From a candidate division WWE3 bacterium RIFOXYC1_FULL_40_10 (GTDB lineage Bacteria; Patescibacteriota; WWE3; UBA101185; UBA10185): a stretch of DNA of 64,000 bases. Made by a program: the position numbers and the translations under genes. The notes below the pieces were generated by a model. The model saw only the letters and a list, made by a program, of their open reading frames with translations, had not been told where the DNA came from and did not search any database. The stretch covers positions 242,488 through 306,487 of the forward strand of contig MEWB01000001.1 of NCBI GenBank assembly GCA_001773215.1, in the 5' to 3' direction. Shown piece by piece: positions 7,222 to 38,114 of this stretch. Within the stretch, counting starts at the first letter, position 1. Each line of letters begins with the position of its first letter.

Positions 7222-7524
7222 ATGATGCCAAATGTTGCACCTCCGGTTTGGAGTGTCCCTAGAGTGTTTAATATGGATGACCCTTTCGAGGCAGAAGCGT
7301 GGAAGTGGATTACTTTCGAAGCCAAGCAGTACACTGATCCAAAAGATTTTGCCGCGAGGGCGATCCTAATTTTTGACATCCCAAGATGGGCCTCGTTAGT
7401 GTACCAGGAGCTTCAATTTCAAGATGCTTTGTTTGCTGATGCATTCAAGGCTCAGTGTGAGGCCGAAGGTTGGGTACTCAAGGGAGACGTCTTTAAACAA
7501 GCCCCCAAGGGAGCAATGAGCTAG
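7222..7524 (+). CDS. Hypothetical protein (100 aa; start at MMPNV behind AGGAG SD)
   Basis: ORF 7156..7524, internal ATG with strong SD ataaggagtttagtATG. Confidence 0.5.
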   Translation: MMPNVAPPVWSVPRVFNMDDPFEAEAWKWITFEAKQYTDPKDFAARAILIFDIPRWASLVYQELQFQDALFADAFKAQCEAEGWVLKGDVFKQAPKGAMS

Positions 7525-7595: not shown

Positions 7596-8510
7596 ATGGA
7601 TGATAGTTATGTACTCGACTTTGTTACGCTATTCAAGGCCCTAGTGGAATTCGAGGAGAAATTTTTAGGTGCTAAAAGGACCTGGCATCCGGTAGCAACT
7701 GGCTTGGCAAGATACTTTTTCGAAAAGTTCCCTGCCATGCGCGATGCGGTTAAGGATTTAGCGAATGTAATCTGCAAAGCCTCAACCGACTACATGGTGT
7801 TAAATGACTTTCTTACGGAAAAAAAGAGATCCCCAATGTTTAGCGGGTCGTTAGGGGGCATTGGCGCAGTGGCGATTATCAAAATCGCACTACGCTGGGC
7901 TTATAAAGCCAAAAAGACTACTCTGGTCTGTCGAAACGGCAAACGCTATAGTGCGTTTGAGGTGAGAAAGGGTTTCACAGTGTTCAAAACTCCTCATGGA
8001 CCATTGGTACGTATTGAAGGAGTTTTCGAGGGTAAAACCTACTATTTGTGGGTGAAGGAAAATCATGTTAATGATCCTTTGGATCTAGTAGATTTTGCTT
8101 TTTATGTGATGACACATTACCAGCGGCTAGCTACAAATGAAAAAATCACTTGTATCCGCCTTGCCGATGTGAAAATAAAAACAGGATTGTGCAAGCTGGC
8201 TTGGCTCTTGGGATCTTATACGCTGGATGATAAAGACAAGATTTGGTTCATCAATCAAGCGTTTCAGGAAGCAGAGTTGGCGTACGATCAGGAAGGGTTG
8301 ATTTTGGATGTCTCGAGCGGCGTTGGAATGGTTCGCAGTATGCCACGCGAAACTCCGTTGGAGTTAAAGGGACCGGTTATCGGGTGGCTCACGCAAGGTG
8401 ACGATCCTCTTCCCATCGCCCCGTTCTTTGCAGGCTATGATGCGTATCAACCTTCAGACGTAGCCGAGGAAGACGTTGAGGAACAGCCGGCTACCAGGAG
8501 TTTTGACTAG
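7596..8510 (+). CDS. Hypothetical protein (304 aa), acidic C-terminus
   Basis: Long ORF with GGGAGAGAAAT SD; followed by a rho-independent terminator. Confidence 0.55.
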   Translation: MDDSYVLDFVTLFKALVEFEEKFLGAKRTWHPVATGLARYFFEKFPAMRDAVKDLANVICKASTDYMVLNDFLTEKKRSPMFSGSLGGIGAVAIIKIALRWAYKAKKTTLVCRNGKRYSAFEVRKGFTVFKTPHGPLVRIEGVFEGKTYYLWVKENHVNDPLDLVDFAFYVMTHYQRLATNEKITCIRLADVKIKTGLCKLAWLLGSYTLDDKDKIWFINQAFQEAELAYDQEGLILDVSSGVGMVRSMPRETPLELKGPVIGWLTQGDDPLPIAPFFAGYDAYQPSDVAEEDVEEQPATRSFD

Positions 8511-15840: not shown

Positions 15841-17730
15841 CTACCCGATATTTTGAATTTCTTTAGAGTCAATTTCACCCGTGTAATAAACCCTCACAGT
15901 AATAGCCTTTTCCTCATTGGACTTACGGTACTCCCCAATTATTTCAACTCTGTTAATTGAATTCGAGCTGTTCTTTATCTGTTCAAGTATTTCCCCAAAT
16001 TCCTTGGAAACAGGAATATTAAACGTAAAATCTTTTTCCGATTCACTATCATACGAAGTCAAAATTCTTGTCGGTAAGGCCTGATTTGCTATTAAGCTTT
16101 CGGTATTTAGCTCAAAACCGTTATATTTAATTACACCAGCTTCATTTCCGTTAATAAGTAGGTTTTTGTTTTCAACAGAGTAGCTTGTAATTCCCAAGTT
16201 AAACAACAATCCGCTTAATATCTCTTTTGTGATTTTACTAATCTCGTAAGGAGTTTTATCCTTTTCCCAAAAAACCCCACAAACCTTTCTGATTTCAGAA
16301 TAATCCGAGTAATTTCTGCTTCCCACAGAACTTGTATTGTAAACCCTGCCTAGTTCGTAAAGTTTTACGCTATCTTGCTTATGTTTTTTATATTCCAAAA
16401 TCACCGGTTCCAAAGTTTCAAACAGTGAAGTTCGCATGGCGCCTTTCTCAGAACTTAAAGCATTTTCCAACAAAACCTGAGAATCCTTTCTATCATCCGT
16501 TTTTACCAACGGATCCGTTATAAACCCATGTAATCCCAAATTAACCAATATATCTCTTAATTTTTCCTCAAAAATATAAATAGCCGGTGTGATTTCACTG
16601 GGCGGAGTAAACGGCACTATAGCAGTGGGAATGTTAGCGTAATTATTTATCCTAAGAACATCCGCTATGATGTCATCCTCAACTTCGATATCAGTTCTAT
16701 AATATGGAATTTCCAATTTCAACCCTTCATTTGTCTTCTCTATCACCTTGTATCCCAGCTTACTCAAAATCGAATCTATTTTGTCCAGGTGTATAAGCAT
16801 TCCAGACACTTTTTCCAATCTTGAATAAGTAAAGTCTAACTGCTTGTATCCCAAAGGATTTTCATACCAGTCTTCGTTATCGAAACAAGTTCCGCCGGCT
16901 AGCTCTAATATCAATTGTGATGCACGTTCTATTGCAATTTTGGCCAGTTCCGGGTGTAAATATTTGTCGTACCTTAAAACAGTTTCGTTTTGAATTTTAA
17001 GCTTTCTCGAAGTTTTTCGGATATTTGTTTGATTATAATTTCCTGCATCCAAAACAATTTTCGTAGTTGCTTCATCAACTCCCGTTCCAGCCCCGCCTAC
17101 AATGCCGCCTATAACAGTGGGTTTGTCGTTTTGCGTTAACACAAATGCGCTTTCATCGAGTTTTACAGTTTCACCAAGAAGAGTAACAACGCTTTCGCCC
17201 TGTCTTGCCCTACGAATGATAATTTCGGGCTTTTCCATTTTATCTATATCTTGGGCATGCATCGGCTGGCCTGTTTCTACCATCACGTAATTTGTAATAT
17301 CCACAACATTATTTATGCTGGGTATTCCATAAGCTTCTAATCTGTTTTTAAGCCAAATCGGCGAGGGTCCAACTTTTAGATCTGTAAAAACACGGGTGTA
17401 AAAACGGTTAACTAAGTCGGGGCATTCAACCTTAATTTCCACTTTTGTGTCATTTCCCTGCTTTCTGCACTCGGTTCTAGTTTGAGACGGCAGTTTTAGT
17501 TCGCTGTTTTCAAAAGCCGCAAAATCTCTTGCACATCCAATAATCGAAAGCCAATCCGATCTGTCCATTCTATGTTCCAAATCTAAAACACTTGTTTCAT
17601 ACCCATCGTTTTTGTATTCATAAATGGGTTTATCTAATAAAAGGCCCAAAGCCGTGAATGAATCAGCGATCTCTTTTGGAGATTTGTCGGTTTGTACATA
17701 TTCTTTTAGCCATTCAATAGGTATTTTCAT
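15841..17730 (-). CDS. pheT: Phenylalanyl-tRNA synthetase beta subunit (short form)
   Basis: 629 aa; N-terminus MKIPIEWLKEYV typical of PheT; downstream of pheS. Confidence 0.9.
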   Translation of the reverse strand: MKIPIEWLKEYVQTDKSPKEIADSFTALGLLLDKPIYEYKNDGYETSVLDLEHRMDRSDWLSIIGCARDFAAFENSELKLPSQTRTECRKQGNDTKVEIKVECPDLVNRFYTRVFTDLKVGPSPIWLKNRLEAYGIPSINNVVDITNYVMVETGQPMHAQDIDKMEKPEIIIRRARQGESVVTLLGETVKLDESAFVLTQNDKPTVIGGIVGGAGTGVDEATTKIVLDAGNYNQTNIRKTSRKLKIQNETVLRYDKYLHPELAKIAIERASQLILELAGGTCFDNEDWYENPLGYKQLDFTYSRLEKVSGMLIHLDKIDSILSKLGYKVIEKTNEGLKLEIPYYRTDIEVEDDIIADVLRINNYANIPTAIVPFTPPSEITPAIYIFEEKLRDILVNLGLHGFITDPLVKTDDRKDSQVLLENALSSEKGAMRTSLFETLEPVILEYKKHKQDSVKLYELGRVYNTSSVGSRNYSDYSEIRKVCGVFWEKDKTPYEISKITKEILSGLLFNLGITSYSVENKNLLINGNEAGVIKYNGFELNTESLIANQALPTRILTSYDSESEKDFTFNIPVSKEFGEILEQIKNSSNSINRVEIIGEYRKSNEEKAITVRVYYTGEIDSKEIQNIG

Positions 17731-17780
17731 CTTTGGTTCATTTTCTTTTTATATAATTACTTTTGCTCTGCGGGCCACCT

Positions 17781-17856
17781 GCCACTGTGGACTATTGGTT
17801 AAGTCGACTAGCCTGTCAACTAGTATAAGAGGGTTCGATCCCCTCCAGTGGCCCCA
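17781..17856 (+). tRNA. tRNA-like gene with perfect acceptor/D/anticodon/T stems but 8-nt anticodon loop CCTGTCAA (GTC = Asp if the extra nucleotide is ignored); CCA encoded
   Basis: GCCACTG/CAGTGGC acceptor, GACT/AGTC D stem, ACTAG/CTAGT anticodon stem, GAGGG-TTCGATC-CCCTC T arm; opposite strand to pheST. Confidence 0.5.
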
Positions 17857-17861
17857 GAGTA

Positions 17862-17889
17862 TTGACTACGTACCAATCTGTGTTAGAAT
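17862..17889 (+). promoter_or_regulatory. Sigma70-like promoter TTGACT-16nt-TAGAAT (TG-extended)
   Basis: Near-consensus -35 and -10 hexamers with 16-nt spacer immediately 3' of the tRNA-like gene. Confidence 0.35.
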
Positions 17890-17922
17890 AGTTTTAGTTG
17901 ACAGGCTGACTTAATTTTAAGT

Positions 17923-17953
17923 CACGGTTGAAAAGAACTCTCTTCGGGGAGTT
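17923..17953 (+). terminator. Rho-independent terminator (AAGAACTCTC-TTCG-GGGAGTTCTT + TTCTTTT)
   Basis: 10-bp stem, UUCG tetraloop, A-tract before and T-tract after on + strand. Confidence 0.5.
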
Positions 17954-17965
17954 CTTTTCTTTTGC

Positions 17966-18979
17966 CTATCTAAATACTATTCCGCCCCCATAAAACTTTC
18001 TAATATCATCCAATCCGAATTTTTGCATTACTAAACGGTCCAGACCCAATCCAAACGCGTATCCCGTGTAAACATCAGGATCAATACCACACGCCTTTAA
18101 TGTGTTGTAATGGATCATCCCCGACCCCAGCGACTCAATCCATCCCCTACCCTTGCAAACTGAGCATCCAGCGCCTTTGCAGAACTTACACAGCATATCA
18201 GTACCCATTCCCGGGGAAACTTCCGGGTAATACTTGTATCTAAACCTTAATACAACATCATCTCCGAACAGAAACTTATGTAATTCAGTTAAAGTGCCCT
18301 TTAAATGCTGAATTGTAATTCCTTTGTCTACAACAAAACCTTGGTAGTGGTGAAAAAAAGGAGTATTTGTTTGGCTGGCTGTTTCATTTCGATACACCTT
18401 TCCCGATGCAACTGCCCTAATCGGCGGATCATATTGAGTTAACACTCTTGATTCAATAGAGGAAGTATGTGTTCTCATCAAAATATCCGGTTCGCTAATA
18501 AATAACGTGTCCTGTAAGTCCGTTGCCGGGTGGCCTTCGGGTAAATTTAGTTTTCTAAAGTTAAATTCCGCTTCTTCAATTTCCTGCCCGTCAACAACTG
18601 AAAACCCGTAATATCTGAAAAACTTATCCAGTTCTCTAATAACGGTTTCCGTGGGGTGCATCATGCCGGTTTTTTGCGGGGGTAATAAATAGGAAAGATC
18701 AATCATAGGATCACCGATAGATTCCAGTGTAGCTTGTTCTCTTGCAGTTTCTATTTGTGCTTTAATTTTCTCGGATACTTTATTTAGTTCAGCCGCCACT
18801 TTCCTTTTCTCTTCAGCAGACAACTCGGGGACGAGCTTCATAAGCTTTGTTATAGTACCATGATTTTTAGAGAAGTATTTTAGGTAGAGCTCATCAAACT
18901 CACCTAACAGGCTAGACTCTTTTAGGTCAGCTAAAAACTGCTTTTCCAATAATTTTATATCTTCGAGACTTAAAGGCAC
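17966..18979 (-). CDS. pheS: Phenylalanyl-tRNA synthetase alpha subunit with a CxxC...CxxC zinc-ribbon insertion
   Basis: 337 aa; class II aaRS motifs; CKFCKGAGCSVCKG insertion. Confidence 0.92.
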   Translation of the reverse strand: MPLSLEDIKLLEKQFLADLKESSLLGEFDELYLKYFSKNHGTITKLMKLVPELSAEEKRKVAAELNKVSEKIKAQIETAREQATLESIGDPMIDLSYLLPPQKTGMMHPTETVIRELDKFFRYYGFSVVDGQEIEEAEFNFRKLNLPEGHPATDLQDTLFISEPDILMRTHTSSIESRVLTQYDPPIRAVASGKVYRNETASQTNTPFFHHYQGFVVDKGITIQHLKGTLTELHKFLFGDDVVLRFRYKYYPEVSPGMGTDMLCKFCKGAGCSVCKGRGWIESLGSGMIHYNTLKACGIDPDVYTGYAFGLGLDRLVMQKFGLDDIRKFYGGGIVFR

Positions 18980-24721: not shown

Positions 24722-24736
24722 ACGATCAAGATACAG

Positions 24737-25351
24737 CTACTTTTTCTTAGGGGACATCATTTTATCAATAATACCGTATTTTAGGGTTTCCTCAGCAGAC
24801 ATCCAGTAATCTCTATCTATATCCTTTTTTACCTGTTCCATCTTTTTTCCGGACTCTTTGGCAATAATTTCGGCGTACTGATCCCGCAACCTAATCATAT
24901 GACGAGCTGTAATCTCTACATCACTTGCTTGCCCCTCTGCCCCACCCAACACCTGATGAATCATAGTATACGAACCTGGCAAGGCATATCTCTTACCTTT
25001 GGTGCCTCCAGCAAGTATTAAAGCCCCCGCTGATGCTGCTAGCCCTACGTTTATGGTGACAATATCGTTCTTAATGTGCTTCATAGTGTCATACATAGCT
25101 CTTCCTGCATAGGCCACTCCACCTTCTGAGTTTACATATACGCTGATGTCTCGATCGGGATTTTCGCTCTCTAAAAACAAAAGTTGCGCAATAAACGTGT
25201 TTGCTTCAGCCATATCAATTGGACCTGTAACAAACACAATGTAGTCTTTCAAAAGTCTGGAGTAGATATCGTAGGATCTTTCACCACCTGCTTCTTTTTC
25301 TACCACATATGGAATTAACGTATTTTTTGCGCTCATTTTATTTTTTGTCAT
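24737..25351 (-). CDS. clpP: ATP-dependent Clp protease proteolytic subunit
   Basis: 204 aa; Ser-His-Asp triad context (GLAASAG, MIHQ, D). Confidence 0.92.
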   Translation of the reverse strand: MTKNKMSAKNTLIPYVVEKEAGGERSYDIYSRLLKDYIVFVTGPIDMAEANTFIAQLLFLESENPDRDISVYVNSEGGVAYAGRAMYDTMKHIKNDIVTINVGLAASAGALILAGGTKGKRYALPGSYTMIHQVLGGAEGQASDVEITARHMIRLRDQYAEIIAKESGKKMEQVKKDIDRDYWMSAEETLKYGIIDKMMSPKKK

Positions 25352-29147: not shown

Positions 29148-29187
29148 ATACCCACTTTCCCATTTTATCACATTGATAAGTGTTGAT

Positions 29188-29832
29188 TTACGACTTAGTA
29201 GCAACTGGCGTGGCAATTTGCCCAATTTGAGTCATAAAGAATGTTACACCTTTGAGCCAATGACCATATGCCGGAGGAGTATACACGGGAGCCATTTCTT
29301 CAGGGGAAACCAACCCCTTATCCACATAATTTTCCTTAATTCCCTTAGCTACAGTTTCGATTGCCTCCTCGTAATTTTGGAAAGCAATGTATTTACCCCC
29401 ATAAATTCCCCATCCAAAAGGATTGAAAGATCCAGGAATAAGTTTTTTTCCACAAGATGACTCCATACATGCGATCGCCGGTAGTAGACGATAGTCTAGA
29501 TCGTATTTGCTGGCTGTATCTGTAAATACTTTTGAATGATCTTTTAGGGGTGAATTGTATTTTTCAAAAAATGCCTCTAAATTCTTGGTCTTGATGTCTA
29601 CCTCCGGGTTTGAAAGAGGCTCAGCCTGTATGTGAAACTGAACTTCTGATATTTCTACCGGCGTGTTTTCCATTTTAGACAACTGCACCATCTTTTCGGT
29701 GTTTGAAAAAAAAGTGAAAAAAATAAAAGCCGGCAAGGCTATTGAGTTAAATTGTATGTTCATTATATGGAATTTTACATTCCGATCATTAATTCTAGCT
29801 GAACAAAGGAGAATAAGCAAATTTAGGACCAA
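29188..29832 (-). CDS. Membrane-anchored protein with GH73 glucosaminidase-like C-terminal domain (probable start at 29763)
   Basis: Motifs ESSCGKK, NPFGWG, YTPPAYGHW resemble the ESxxG / NNxFG / YATD blocks of glucosaminidase (FlgJ/LytD) domains; paralog of 30415..31263. Confidence 0.45.
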   Translation of the reverse strand: MVLNLLILLCSARINDRNVKFHIMNIQFNSIALPAFIFFTFFSNTEKMVQLSKMENTPVEISEVQFHIQAEPLSNPEVDIKTKNLEAFFEKYNSPLKDHSKVFTDTASKYDLDYRLLPAIACMESSCGKKLIPGSFNPFGWGIYGGKYIAFQNYEEAIETVAKGIKENYVDKGLVSPEEMAPVYTPPAYGHWLKGVTFFMTQIGQIATPVATKS

Positions 29833-37418: not shown

Positions 37419-37457
37419 GAAGAGGGATCGTACCCGATCCCGAAGAACTGCCAAATT

Positions 37458-38114
37458 CTACCATGCTTCACTATTAAGCACTAATCCCAATATTTCCCTA
37501 TGAATTTCTTCAATTTTTCCATTTGCATTAACTATTTTCCAGCCGTAAATATGTGCCAACTCCTGGTGTATTTCTCTATTCCTCTGCCACACTTCTTGTG
37601 ATCTAAACATATGAATTTGTCTAATTTCCTCCCACTTATCGCTATTCTTACCTTCGTTTCGGTGAAATTTTTCTGCACTTTGACTAAACCGCCCTCCGTC
37701 TAACAAGATTGCAATATCAGGGTTTATTAGCCCCTTATTAATCTTTTCCAATTCCTTTCGTTGCAAACCTCGGGTCATACCCCAGGCGATGCCTGTTCCG
37801 GTATAGTCCTCACTTATTACGTTTATGCCGGCTTTTAAGACCTCCACAAGAGTTGGTTGAAAATCTTTTCTATTTTGTGCATATAGCTTTTGAAGCGATA
37901 ATTCATCAGTCATTTTATGAGTATTAAGTGTTTCCTGGCTTTCGGTTCTGATAATCGAATTAATTAGCGGACCAGTAGGTTTTAAACTATATATGGGGTA
38001 TTTGACTAACAAAACATCCTTTTTGTTTTGATATAAAGCCTGGGCTAGTAACCTTATTTGAGTAGACTTGCCCAGGTTATTCGATCCGTAGAGTGTGATT
38101 AGTTTTCCCTTCAT
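37458..38114 (-). CDS. P-loop nucleoside monophosphate kinase of the thymidylate kinase family
   Basis: 218 aa; Walker A LYGSNNLGKSTQ; DY..TG..AWG block resembling Tmk DRY region. Confidence 0.55.
   Translation of the reverse strand: MKGKLITLYGSNNLGKSTQIRLLAQALYQNKKDVLLVKYPIYSLKPTGPLINSIIRTESQETLNTHKMTDELSLQKLYAQNRKDFQPTLVEVLKAGINVISEDYTGTGIAWGMTRGLQRKELEKINKGLINPDIAILLDGGRFSQSAEKFHRNEGKNSDKWEEIRQIHMFRSQEVWQRNREIHQELAHIYGWKIVNANGKIEEIHREILGLVLNSEAW

Follow-up and report, generated by a model that had tools for sequence, protein, structure and literature searches.

Background and summary

The spacer between pheS and pheT in the candidate division WWE3 bacterium RIFOXYC1_FULL_40_10, an uncultured groundwater bacterium, carries a tRNA-like gene with an enlarged, 8-nt anticodon loop, which is followed on the same strand by a promoter, a stretch complementary to the tRNA-like RNA and an intrinsic terminator. 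Here, we present a computational analysis of this element in its genomic setting, a stretch of 64,000 nucleotides from contig MEWB01000001.1 (assembly GCA_001773215.1), hereafter the window. WWE3 is a member of the Candidate Phyla Radiation (CPR), and the PheS of the window is 100% identical to the NCBI protein of this genome. On the minus strand of the 64-kb window the gene order is thrS-infC-rpmI-rplT-pheS, then the 235-bp spacer and then a short form of pheT, and pheS, pheT and thrS are each one intact open reading frame (ORF). A first-pass annotation, made from the sequence alone, had placed a plus-strand cloverleaf in a 235-bp spacer opposite the minus-strand operon, and both the gene coordinates and the ARAGORN call bear this out (Table 1).

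As a whole, the element looks like an undescribed two-RNA module and not like a broken tRNA. The reading that we favour, tentatively and with a probability of roughly 45%, is that of a non-decoding tRNA scaffold whose enlarged loop would be targeted by a cognate antisense small RNA (sRNA). Probably, then, this is a form of antisense-RNA control not seen before, with a pseudo-tRNA as its foundation. Throughout, the module of the window is compared with a second one, found at the pheS-pheT junction of another lineage (locus L034).

Table 1. Features in and around the pheS-pheT spacer, with positions counted from the first nucleotide of the window.
Feature	Position	Strand	Remarks
pheT, short form, 629 aa	15841..17730	-	operon context
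TATAAT, sole promoter-like signal 5' of the tRNA-like gene, no -35	17752..17757	+	sequence scan; outside the putative insertion boundary
CTTTTGC, left copy of a possible 7-bp target-site duplication	17760..17766		chance probability ~0.1
tRNA-like gene: perfect cloverleaf, 8-nt anticodon loop, 4-nt variable loop, C73, encoded CCA	17781..17856	+	ARAGORN, Rfam, RNAfold
Left arm: 5' half of the tRNA-like gene (part of acceptor 5' strand, D arm, anticodon stem 5' strand, loop)	17784..17823	+	pairs with the right arm
8-nt loop CCTGTCAA: C31.5-like extra C, then C32 U33 G34 U35 C36 A37 A38	17812..17819	+	centre of the 13-nt perfect block
Promoter TTGACT-16-(TGT)TAGAAT, begins 5 nt past CCA	17862..17889	+	10 of 12 consensus matches, TG before -10
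Right arm: diverged inverted copy of the tRNA 5' half, with perfect block TAGTTGACAGGCT (17895-17907) and hairpin TGACTTA-ATTT-TAAGTCA	17894..17928	+	
Predicted ~70-nt sRNA: 5' antisense arm, then intrinsic terminator	17896..17965	+	start inferred from -10; fold z-score -4.2
Intrinsic terminator: 13-bp stem of the GAAAAGAACTCTC/GAGAGTTCTTTTC type, TTCG loop, T-run	17930..17965	+	adjoins the pheS stop codon
CTTTTGC, right copy of the possible duplication	17959..17965		adjoins the terminator T-run
pheS	17966..18979	-	operon context

The tRNA-like gene

The 76-nt gene at 17781-17856 (plus strand) was called by ARAGORN as tRNA-?(Thr|Asp), reported as tRNA-???, and matched the Rfam tRNA model (RF00005) with 52.4 bits (gathering score 29, E 3e-10), well past the threshold set for the tRNA family. 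The covariance-model and ARAGORN checks proposed in the first-pass annotation have accordingly returned a strong tRNA match and not noise. The minimum-energy structure predicted by RNAfold is the cloverleaf itself, with acceptor, D, anticodon and T stems of 7, 4, 5 and 5 bp, in which 21 of 21 pairs are Watson-Crick. The four perfect stems, the encoded CCA, the 8-nt loop and the 4-nt variable loop that had been described were thus recovered with ARAGORN, Rfam and RNAfold. Since every stem pair is Watson-Crick, although the inverted copy of the 5' half in the same spacer has diverged by about 30%, the cloverleaf appears to be kept. The positions required for the tertiary contacts of the L-shape are also present (U8, A14, G18 and G19, G53-C61, T54, T55 and C56, and A58).

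In two respects the gene departs from a canonical tRNA. First, the anticodon loop (CCUGUCAA, 17812-17819) has 8 nt in place of the usual 7 with U33 at the second loop position and a purine at position 37, and the Infernal/Rfam alignment places its one inserted base in this loop; the variable loop reads AUAA and the 3' end C73-CCA. Second, of the Asp identity set, G10 and the GUC anticodon are present, but C73 and A38 stand where G73 and C38 are expected, and A73 or G73 is found in each of the four genuine tRNAs of the window. The set G73, C38, G10 and GUC represents the rules of E. coli and yeast, and the aspartyl-tRNA synthetase (AspRS) of CPR bacteria may differ.

An assembly error in the form of an extra C can be dismissed, because the spacer is base-for-base the same in at least nine assemblies available from NCBI, ENA and JGI (L001-L004, L223-L225, L227 and L228), which represent different samples and different assemblers. 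The comparison with alternative assemblies for a 1-nt indel, which had been called for at the outset, thereby left the 8-nt loop in place and the spacer unchanged.

When the spacer was searched against all Rfam families with E values up to 10, the tRNA match was accompanied by weak sub-threshold hits only, and T-box, tmRNA, Y RNA and ctRNA were rejected as identities for lack of a credible Rfam match. A protein-coding reading of the spacer was also set aside, the 96-aa ORF at 17624-17914 having no Pfam match. Just 5' of the tRNA-like gene, a GGGCCAC leader (17771-17777) could pair with GTGGCCC (17848-17854), which comprises the acceptor 3' strand and C73-C74-C75; in a precursor, this alternative register would mask part of the 3' CCA end (C74-C75).

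Promoter, predicted small RNA and terminator

The near-consensus promoter listed in the first-pass annotation is present at 17862-17889, but it would drive the RNA downstream of it and not the tRNA-like gene, which has only a TATAAT upstream. With a -10 hexamer that extends to 17889, transcription is predicted to start at about 17896, where the complementarity described below also sets in. The strong plus-strand terminator was found as annotated, at 17930-17965, and consists of a stem of 13 pairs (17930-17959) followed by a T-run; with an A-run on its other side, it may also act on the operon strand. The hairpin that precedes it had been given as GACTTAA-t-TTAAGTC, a form to be replaced by that in Table 1. 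Judged by consensus matches alone, a promoter and a terminator of its own, as expected of an antisense RNA, accompany the predicted sRNA both here and in L034.

The genuine tRNA genes of the window likewise lie behind -10 or extended -10 elements with no clear -35. The regions upstream of tRNA-Val, tRNA-Leu and tRNA-Pro (24722-24840, 29148-29270 and 37420-37540) contain extended -10 elements, for example TGATAAAAT and TGGTAGAAT, and no recognisable -35. For this organism, the TTGACT -35 of the module is therefore unusually strong.

Complementarity between the two predicted RNAs

The 13-nt complementarity reported at first is an exact inverted repeat (17810-17822 and 17895-17907), for which about 4e-4 occurrences are expected by chance in 235 nt, and the perfect block is centred on the 8-nt loop. 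Its true extent is nevertheless larger, about 34 bp: folded as one RNA, 17781-17965 forms an interrupted 34-bp helix, including 5 G.U pairs, between nucleotides 4-43 of the tRNA and 17894-17928. The region behind the promoter is in effect an inverted copy of the whole tRNA 5' half, with 29 of 41 aligned positions identical and gaps of 4 nt and 1 nt.

Cofolded as separate molecules, the two RNAs gain -13.4 kcal/mol over their self-folds, against a mean of -1.5 for shuffled arms and about -2 kcal/mol for the sRNA combined with the four real tRNAs of the window. Cross-combinations of the RNAs of the window and L034 gain -2.2 and -3.6 kcal/mol, and each sRNA thus fits its own partner only. Extended and specific complementarity that includes an exposed loop, as is typical of antisense pairs, was found in both modules. 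In both, the complementarity sets in 5-7 nt past the -10, that is, at the predicted start site. The longest Watson-Crick run is 13 here and 10 in L034 (15 and 17 with G.U allowed). In a viral control set of 120 sites matching T arm, CCA and promoter, the maximum for such a run, taken from the anticodon region to the 60 nt past the -10, was 8. A scan of 697 kb of WWE3-type DNA gave 120 promoter-like sites, of which the two modules take the top two places.

With regard to the strand on which the pairing acts, every mismatch between the arms is a G.T or T.G (6 such mismatches in the strict alignment and 11 in the folds), with no case of A.C, and the fold of the tRNA strand is the more stable, with -67.6 vs -63.5 kcal/mol for the operon strand here and -62.1 vs -51.2 in L034. 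Both features are suggestive of pairing on the tRNA strand, most simply as RNA. The first-pass annotation had proposed a small cis-antisense RNA that pairs with the tRNA-like transcript. What stands of this is a predicted promoter-driven pairing RNA, which is specific, pairs over about 34 bp and recurs in L034; the term cis-antisense is wrong, since both RNAs would come from the same strand and pair through an inverted repeat.

The sRNA is, however, also perfectly complementary to the spacer of the pheS-pheT mRNA, which is possibly its real target, and this is the first of several points that count against the two-RNA reading. Both GC and AT skew are strong in this region, and in highly transcribed genes the non-template strand is prone to C-to-T change; strand mutation bias could yield the same G.U-only pattern, for which reason we grade that pattern as suggestive only. 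No other targets of the sRNA seed were found in the window, and the pair has no evident purpose. A consensus promoter 5' of the tRNA-like gene is missing in both modules, the window having the -10 TATAAT only, and if the tRNA-like strand is not transcribed 5' of the internal promoter, the sRNA has no tRNA-like partner. Furthermore, the known instances number two, too few for a formal covariation test.

In a very improbable alternative, the molecule that matters would be the pheS-pheT mRNA, and the pheS:pheT ratio would be set by its hairpin together with the bidirectional terminator and the antisense sRNA, for instance if RNase III cut the long mRNA hairpin or the duplex of sRNA and mRNA. Such a role fits the full complementarity of the sRNA to the operon mRNA just past the pheS stop, and it fits a terminator that now splits genes translationally coupled in relatives, another of which has a terminator hairpin alone at this junction. 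There is also a minus-strand promoter-like sequence, TTGACA-17-AATAGT, inside the tRNA-like gene and 5' of pheT. Yet of the two hairpins that on the operon strand is the weaker, its A.C positions corresponding to G.U pairs on the other strand, a matching sense-strand promoter is missing from L034, and the conservation of acceptor stem, T arm and CCA would be left unexplained. The promoter-like sequence itself (17819-17791, minus strand), the -35 of which is the reverse complement of the anticodon loop, lies about 85 nt 5' of the pheT start; this weak site could serve pheT, which now lies behind a terminator.

A second instance

A search for the same element between pheS and pheT in other genomes, as had been suggested, led to one further lineage, in which the module is unrelated in sequence. 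In this locus, L034 (CAZGUN010000012.1; PheS 61% identical), a 277-bp pheS-pheT spacer has the same layout opposite the operon strand. The acceptor stem of the tRNA-like element (1946-1876) is 7 bp long, two of its pairs being G.U; the element also has a D-like stem of 4 bp with a UGGC loop and the T arm GCGGG-TTCAATT-CCCGT, followed by A73-CCA. No credible anticodon arm is present in L034, where there is at best a weak stem with a 12-nt loop, and in Rfam the element has a sub-threshold tmRNA match (18.7 bits vs 47) via the acceptor and T arm only. One base past the CCA begins the promoter TTGACA-17-TATAGT (11 of 12 consensus matches), and then come an arm complementary to the tRNA-like 5' half and a 10-bp terminator that adjoins the pheS stop. 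The arms pair over 31 bp with a cofold gain of -21.4 kcal/mol, against a mean of -4.6 for shuffled arms.

The two modules have no common sequence beyond generic tRNA and promoter motifs. Their dimensions are nonetheless alike: the inter-arm distance is 72 nt in the window vs 69 nt in L034, and the distance from the CCA to the reverse-complemented G-G-G codons of pheS is 125 vs 129 nt. The enlarged loop is common to both (8 nt here, about 12 nt in L034). In both, the acceptor stem, T arm, CCA, promoter position, arm pairing and terminator are kept and the anticodon is not. It is this shared set, with the upper half of the tRNA but no anticodon, that supports the two-RNA reading.

Decoding potential

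The first-pass annotation had seen in the enlarged loop the architecture of a frameshift-suppressor tRNA. SufJ is a frameshift suppressor derived from Salmonella tRNA-Thr by a C31.5 insertion (PMC4238358). The one-base insertion 5' of the anticodon and the resulting 8-nt loop of the SufJ type are indeed found in the element: as in SufJ, the loop is enlarged by an extra C on its 5' side at the stem, U33, the triplet, R37 and A38 keep their normal register, and a C.A closing interaction is predicted, which ARAGORN also draws. SufJ differs in that it arose by point mutation from a resident tRNA that is charged and has its full set of identity elements. The window element has C73, lies in a recent insertion and is coupled to a predicted antisense RNA, and its counterpart in L034 has no anticodon arm.

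A working decoding tRNA would either be a SufJ-type +1 frameshifter reading GAY-N or a triplet-reading tRNA-Asp with an 8-nt loop, the level or maturation of which the downstream RNA would control. Apart from the exact SufJ arrangement of the loop, such a role agrees with the intact tertiary positions, the encoded CCA and the fact that 8-nt loops are able to read triplets, as in yeast mitochondrial tRNA-Thr1 (PMC3113583). We consider it very unlikely all the same. G73, a major identity element for AspRS, is replaced by C73 and C38 by A38, which argues against Asp identity, and the genuine tRNAs of the window have other discriminators. The gene is also a recent addition that relatives are without, and the resident tRNA-Asp should therefore lie elsewhere. 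Finally, the L034 counterpart is unable to decode, and the sRNA is predicted to unfold the tRNA-like RNA. What remains of the original proposal is the match to the SufJ loop; in view of C73, the recent insertion and the lack of a usable anticodon arm in L034, nothing in these sequences appears to support a decoding role.

Insertion history and genomic distribution

The pheS neighbourhoods of 80 species representatives were compared, including about 75 WWE3-like loci. None of these approximately 75 related loci has a tRNA between pheS and pheT, and in most relatives the two genes are 0-30 bp apart or overlap by ATGA. The nearest relatives (66-68% PheS identity) are without the module, and in them the genes abut or are separated by a terminator hairpin alone. 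The 235-bp spacer is thus a lineage-specific insertion, and a conserved feature of the WWE3 pheST operon is excluded. The insertion in L034 is an independent one, since pheS and pheT overlap in the two loci closest to it (75% and 73% PheS identity). Ancestry of the module shared with close relatives was dismissed for both loci, their nearest pheS homologues having abutting genes or a terminator hairpin only.

The two CTTTTGC copies in the window could be a target-site duplication flanking about 192 bp, a pair that is weak on its own. The L034 spacer is flanked by an 8-bp direct repeat, TCCCTAAA, the right copy of which follows the terminator T-run. Two independent insertions together with possible target duplications imply mobility; no mechanism for it was found, and there is no second copy in the window or in 697 kb of relatives.

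Different small structured insertions, including long hairpins and CCTAGGGGTCCGTCCCCTAGG palindromes, occupy the pheS-pheT junctions of L014, L018, L046, L067 and L229, and the junction of L229 has a lone bidirectional terminator hairpin. The junction is a recurrent landing or tolerance site. That both modules lie between pheS and pheT is only mildly surprising, since pheS loci alone were surveyed and other small insertions occur there too.

A custom scan for T arm and acceptor across all pheS loci returned an ordinary tRNA-Val, the oddities of L024, L034 and the window element only, and ARAGORN at lowered thresholds gave noise and the L034 element only. A metagenome scan (T arm, CCA and reverse-complemented pheS C-terminus) gave 6 hits, none of them beside pheS. 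This counts weakly against the two-RNA reading, because the collection had missed the organism's own 899,889-bp JGI contig Ga0208375_1000001, an exact match to the pattern. A phage or viral origin was rejected, as neither the tRNA-like gene, the sRNA region nor the L034 module had a meaningful match in 50,697 phage genomes. In IMG/VR, 16-mer hits were at chance level and outside tRNAs, and the 22-mer of T arm and acceptor had no hit. One such 16-mer, CTAGCCTGTCAACTAG, lies near three tandem TTGACAGG repeats 5' of an XRE-type helix-turn-helix gene (IMG/VR contigs L218, 117-350, and L222); this viral repeat region is probably an operator, and with a hit count at chance level it is not linked to the module.

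Locus L024 (WWE3 MAG_289, JBPOHV010000001.1) contains two tRNA-like genes (7337-7408 and 8117-8187) with 6-nt loops, CTTTTG and CGACAA. Each lies behind an extended -10, and the two flank a tRNA-Ile(TAT) directly 3' of pheT; inverted repeats of 31 nt (7973-8003 and 8310-8340) bracket the second. WWE3 genomes thus seem to carry several tRNA look-alikes with disabled loops.

As to the genes beside the module in the window, further neighbours around the locus are an FG-GAP protein and PBP1. The Pfam domains of PheT (15841-17730, minus strand) are limited to B3_4, B5 and a core-like domain; with Pfam, neither an N-terminal tRNA-binding nor a C-terminal anticodon-binding (FDX-ACB) domain was detected in its 629 aa, and relatives have the same pattern.

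Relic or DNA element

The lineage-specific insertion raises the question of a non-functional relic, in which a tRNA gene, or a fragment carrying one, came in together with a partly duplicated and inverted 5' half, the promoter and the terminator are remnants or chance matches, and the operon simply tolerates the whole. The other small structured insertions at the junction in L014, L018, L046, L067 and L229 suit this explanation, as do the degenerate D and anticodon region of the L034 copy and the missing consensus promoter 5' of the tRNA-like gene, and an 8-nt loop with C73 is what one expects of a disabled tRNA. A relic does not account, however, for two sequence-unrelated modules that share their order and spacing (both the inter-arm and the CCA-to-pheS distances), with near-consensus promoters and terminators at equal places. 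Moreover, the cloverleaf is without a broken pair beside a diverged duplicate arm, L034 has lost its anticodon arm and kept 31 bp of arm pairing, and the controls show that the complementarity is no by-product of a tRNA-then-promoter arrangement. We judge this explanation to be unlikely.

The inverted repeat could, alternatively, function as DNA, be it as the recombination sites of a small invertible promoter, which a flip would aim at pheT, as a single-stranded DNA hairpin or as the ends of a miniature element, with the likeness to a tRNA incidental or a matter of origin. Inverted repeats do bracket a strong promoter, the anticodon arm (5 bp - 8 nt - 5 bp) resembles the core site of a tyrosine recombinase, pheT has no obvious promoter of its own downstream of the terminator, and DNA hairpins tolerate G.T pairs too. 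The possible 7-8 bp target-site duplications that flank both modules and the mobility implied by two independent insertions also fit. On the other hand, a segment of 69-72 bp between the arms is very short for recombinase-mediated inversion, and the arms are only about 70-80% matched, with bulges, where invertons usually have near-perfect repeats. Neither a recombinase nor a transposase gene lies next to the module, and one orientation only occurs in all assemblies read (at least nine of them compared base by base, from several samples). We therefore rejected an inverton, given a perfect core of 13 bp, a segment of 72 bp here, a single orientation at the assembly level and no nearby recombinase. 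A miniature inverted-repeat transposable element would account for the possible duplications of 7 bp (window) and 8 bp (L034); its repeats would, however, be internal and not terminal to the putative insertion, and no other copy exists in the window or the 697 kb of relatives. Any explanation at the DNA level also leaves unexplained why the complementarity sets in exactly at the predicted transcription start, and we regard this group of explanations as rather improbable.

The attachment-site remnant that had been offered as a further possibility in the first-pass annotation was dropped. Integration yields direct repeats and not inverted repeats of tRNA parts; here the repeat is inverted and copies the 5' half, and there is neither an integrase nor an island between the copies.

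Comparison with known systems

IS10 RNA-OUT/RNA-IN, R1 CopA/CopT and hok/sok are antisense pairs of the loop-to-linear kind, in which each RNA comes from a different strand of the locus and an mRNA is regulated. The module would resemble them in its strong promoter, in the short terminated RNA and in a perfect loop match that nucleates a longer, imperfect duplex. It differs in that both RNAs of the window would come from the same strand via an inverted repeat and in that the target is tRNA-like.

The c4 RNA of P1/P7 and the CI RNA of P4 are antisense RNAs processed by RNase P, which lie in the same orientation as their targets and serve in phage immunity, the targets being mRNAs of protein genes. 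By analogy, the module may share with them a structured RNA resembling a tRNA precursor, the loops of which pair with a complementary sequence a short way downstream on the same strand; the partner here would, in contrast, be a non-coding RNA of about 70 nt with its own promoter.

Correia elements of Neisseria are miniature inverted-repeat elements with outward promoters. Like them, the module is an intergenic insertion of about 150-200 bp with inverted repeats, a promoter and a possible short target duplication, which forms a hairpin when transcribed. Unlike in Correia elements, its repeats are internal, it is apparently single-copy as far as seen, and it contains a full tRNA cloverleaf.

Two tRNA-shaped RNAs outside translation were also considered. 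The pseudo-tRNA 'tRNA-Other' of Bacillus cereus is a non-translational, tRNA-shaped RNA at the edge of acquired DNA, for which a regulatory role has been proposed (PMC3399842). It shares with the window element the tRNA shape, the place outside translation and the association with acquired DNA; unlike the window element, it lacks an antisense partner of its own, and it has no enlarged loop to which a gene next to it would correspond. Bacterial Y RNAs (YrlA) are modular, with a tRNA-like domain on a long stem (PMC4201824), and the module read as one transcript would likewise be a long stem with an apical domain that contains the T arm. It differs from YrlA in having no Rfam Y-RNA match, no rsr gene nearby, a promoter inside the 'apical domain' and an acceptor end whose CCA is free in the cloverleaf.

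The proposed two-RNA module

In the two-RNA reading, a self-contained, RNA-only module of about 190-200 bp would have been inserted such that it is transcribed antisense to the pheS-pheT operon. The tRNA body would provide a stable scaffold, processable by RNase P and the CCA machinery, and the enlarged 'anticodon' loop would be an exposed recognition site. From the strong promoter right after the CCA, an sRNA of about 70 nt with a single-stranded 5' end would be made, ending at the strong terminator. Pairing would nucleate on the loop (13 nt) and zip along the tRNA 5' half (about 34 bp), which would unfold or sequester the tRNA-like RNA and leave the T arm alone; equivalently, the tRNA-like RNA may titrate the sRNA. 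The two RNAs would thus form an antisense pair of the loop-to-linear kind. As a side effect, a terminator and convergent transcription would be placed between pheS and pheT, and in this way the insertion may also act on the operon mRNA.

The analysis establishes the anatomy of the sequence, its lineage-specific insertion, an independent second instance and a pairing that is specific and energetically favourable; the production of both RNAs, the direction of control and the cellular purpose are what we infer from the sequence. With regard to purpose, the module is most likely an accessory or selfish one. A more far-reaching version, which we mention as a long shot, is a mobile, protein-free CPR module in which the antisense RNA would restrain a tRNA-shaped partner (here a SufJ-type frameshifter) that in its free form does harm or is active. 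Such a cassette on a tRNA scaffold, of the RNA-toxin/RNA-antitoxin or addiction-like type, would insert with short target duplications and would have landed between pheS and pheT on two independent occasions.

Significance

The combination of a tRNA scaffold and a dedicated antisense RNA was not found in Rfam or in the literature searched, and nothing specific was found in the literature on enlarged anticodon loops or tRNA-like RNAs in CPR bacteria. The SufJ-like loop makes the possibility of a natural frameshifting tRNA directly testable. If both RNAs are made and pair, a tRNA scaffold would present an enlarged loop to a dedicated antisense RNA. If true, this would give a concrete reason for the 'tRNA-???' annotations with 6- or 8-nt loops in CPR genomes, and it would represent a new kind of small-RNA module for CPR bacteria, whose regulatory RNAs are almost unknown. 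Further, the finding bears on how essential, translationally coupled genes such as pheS and pheT tolerate insertions, and on the existence of small, RNA-only mobile elements in bacteria.

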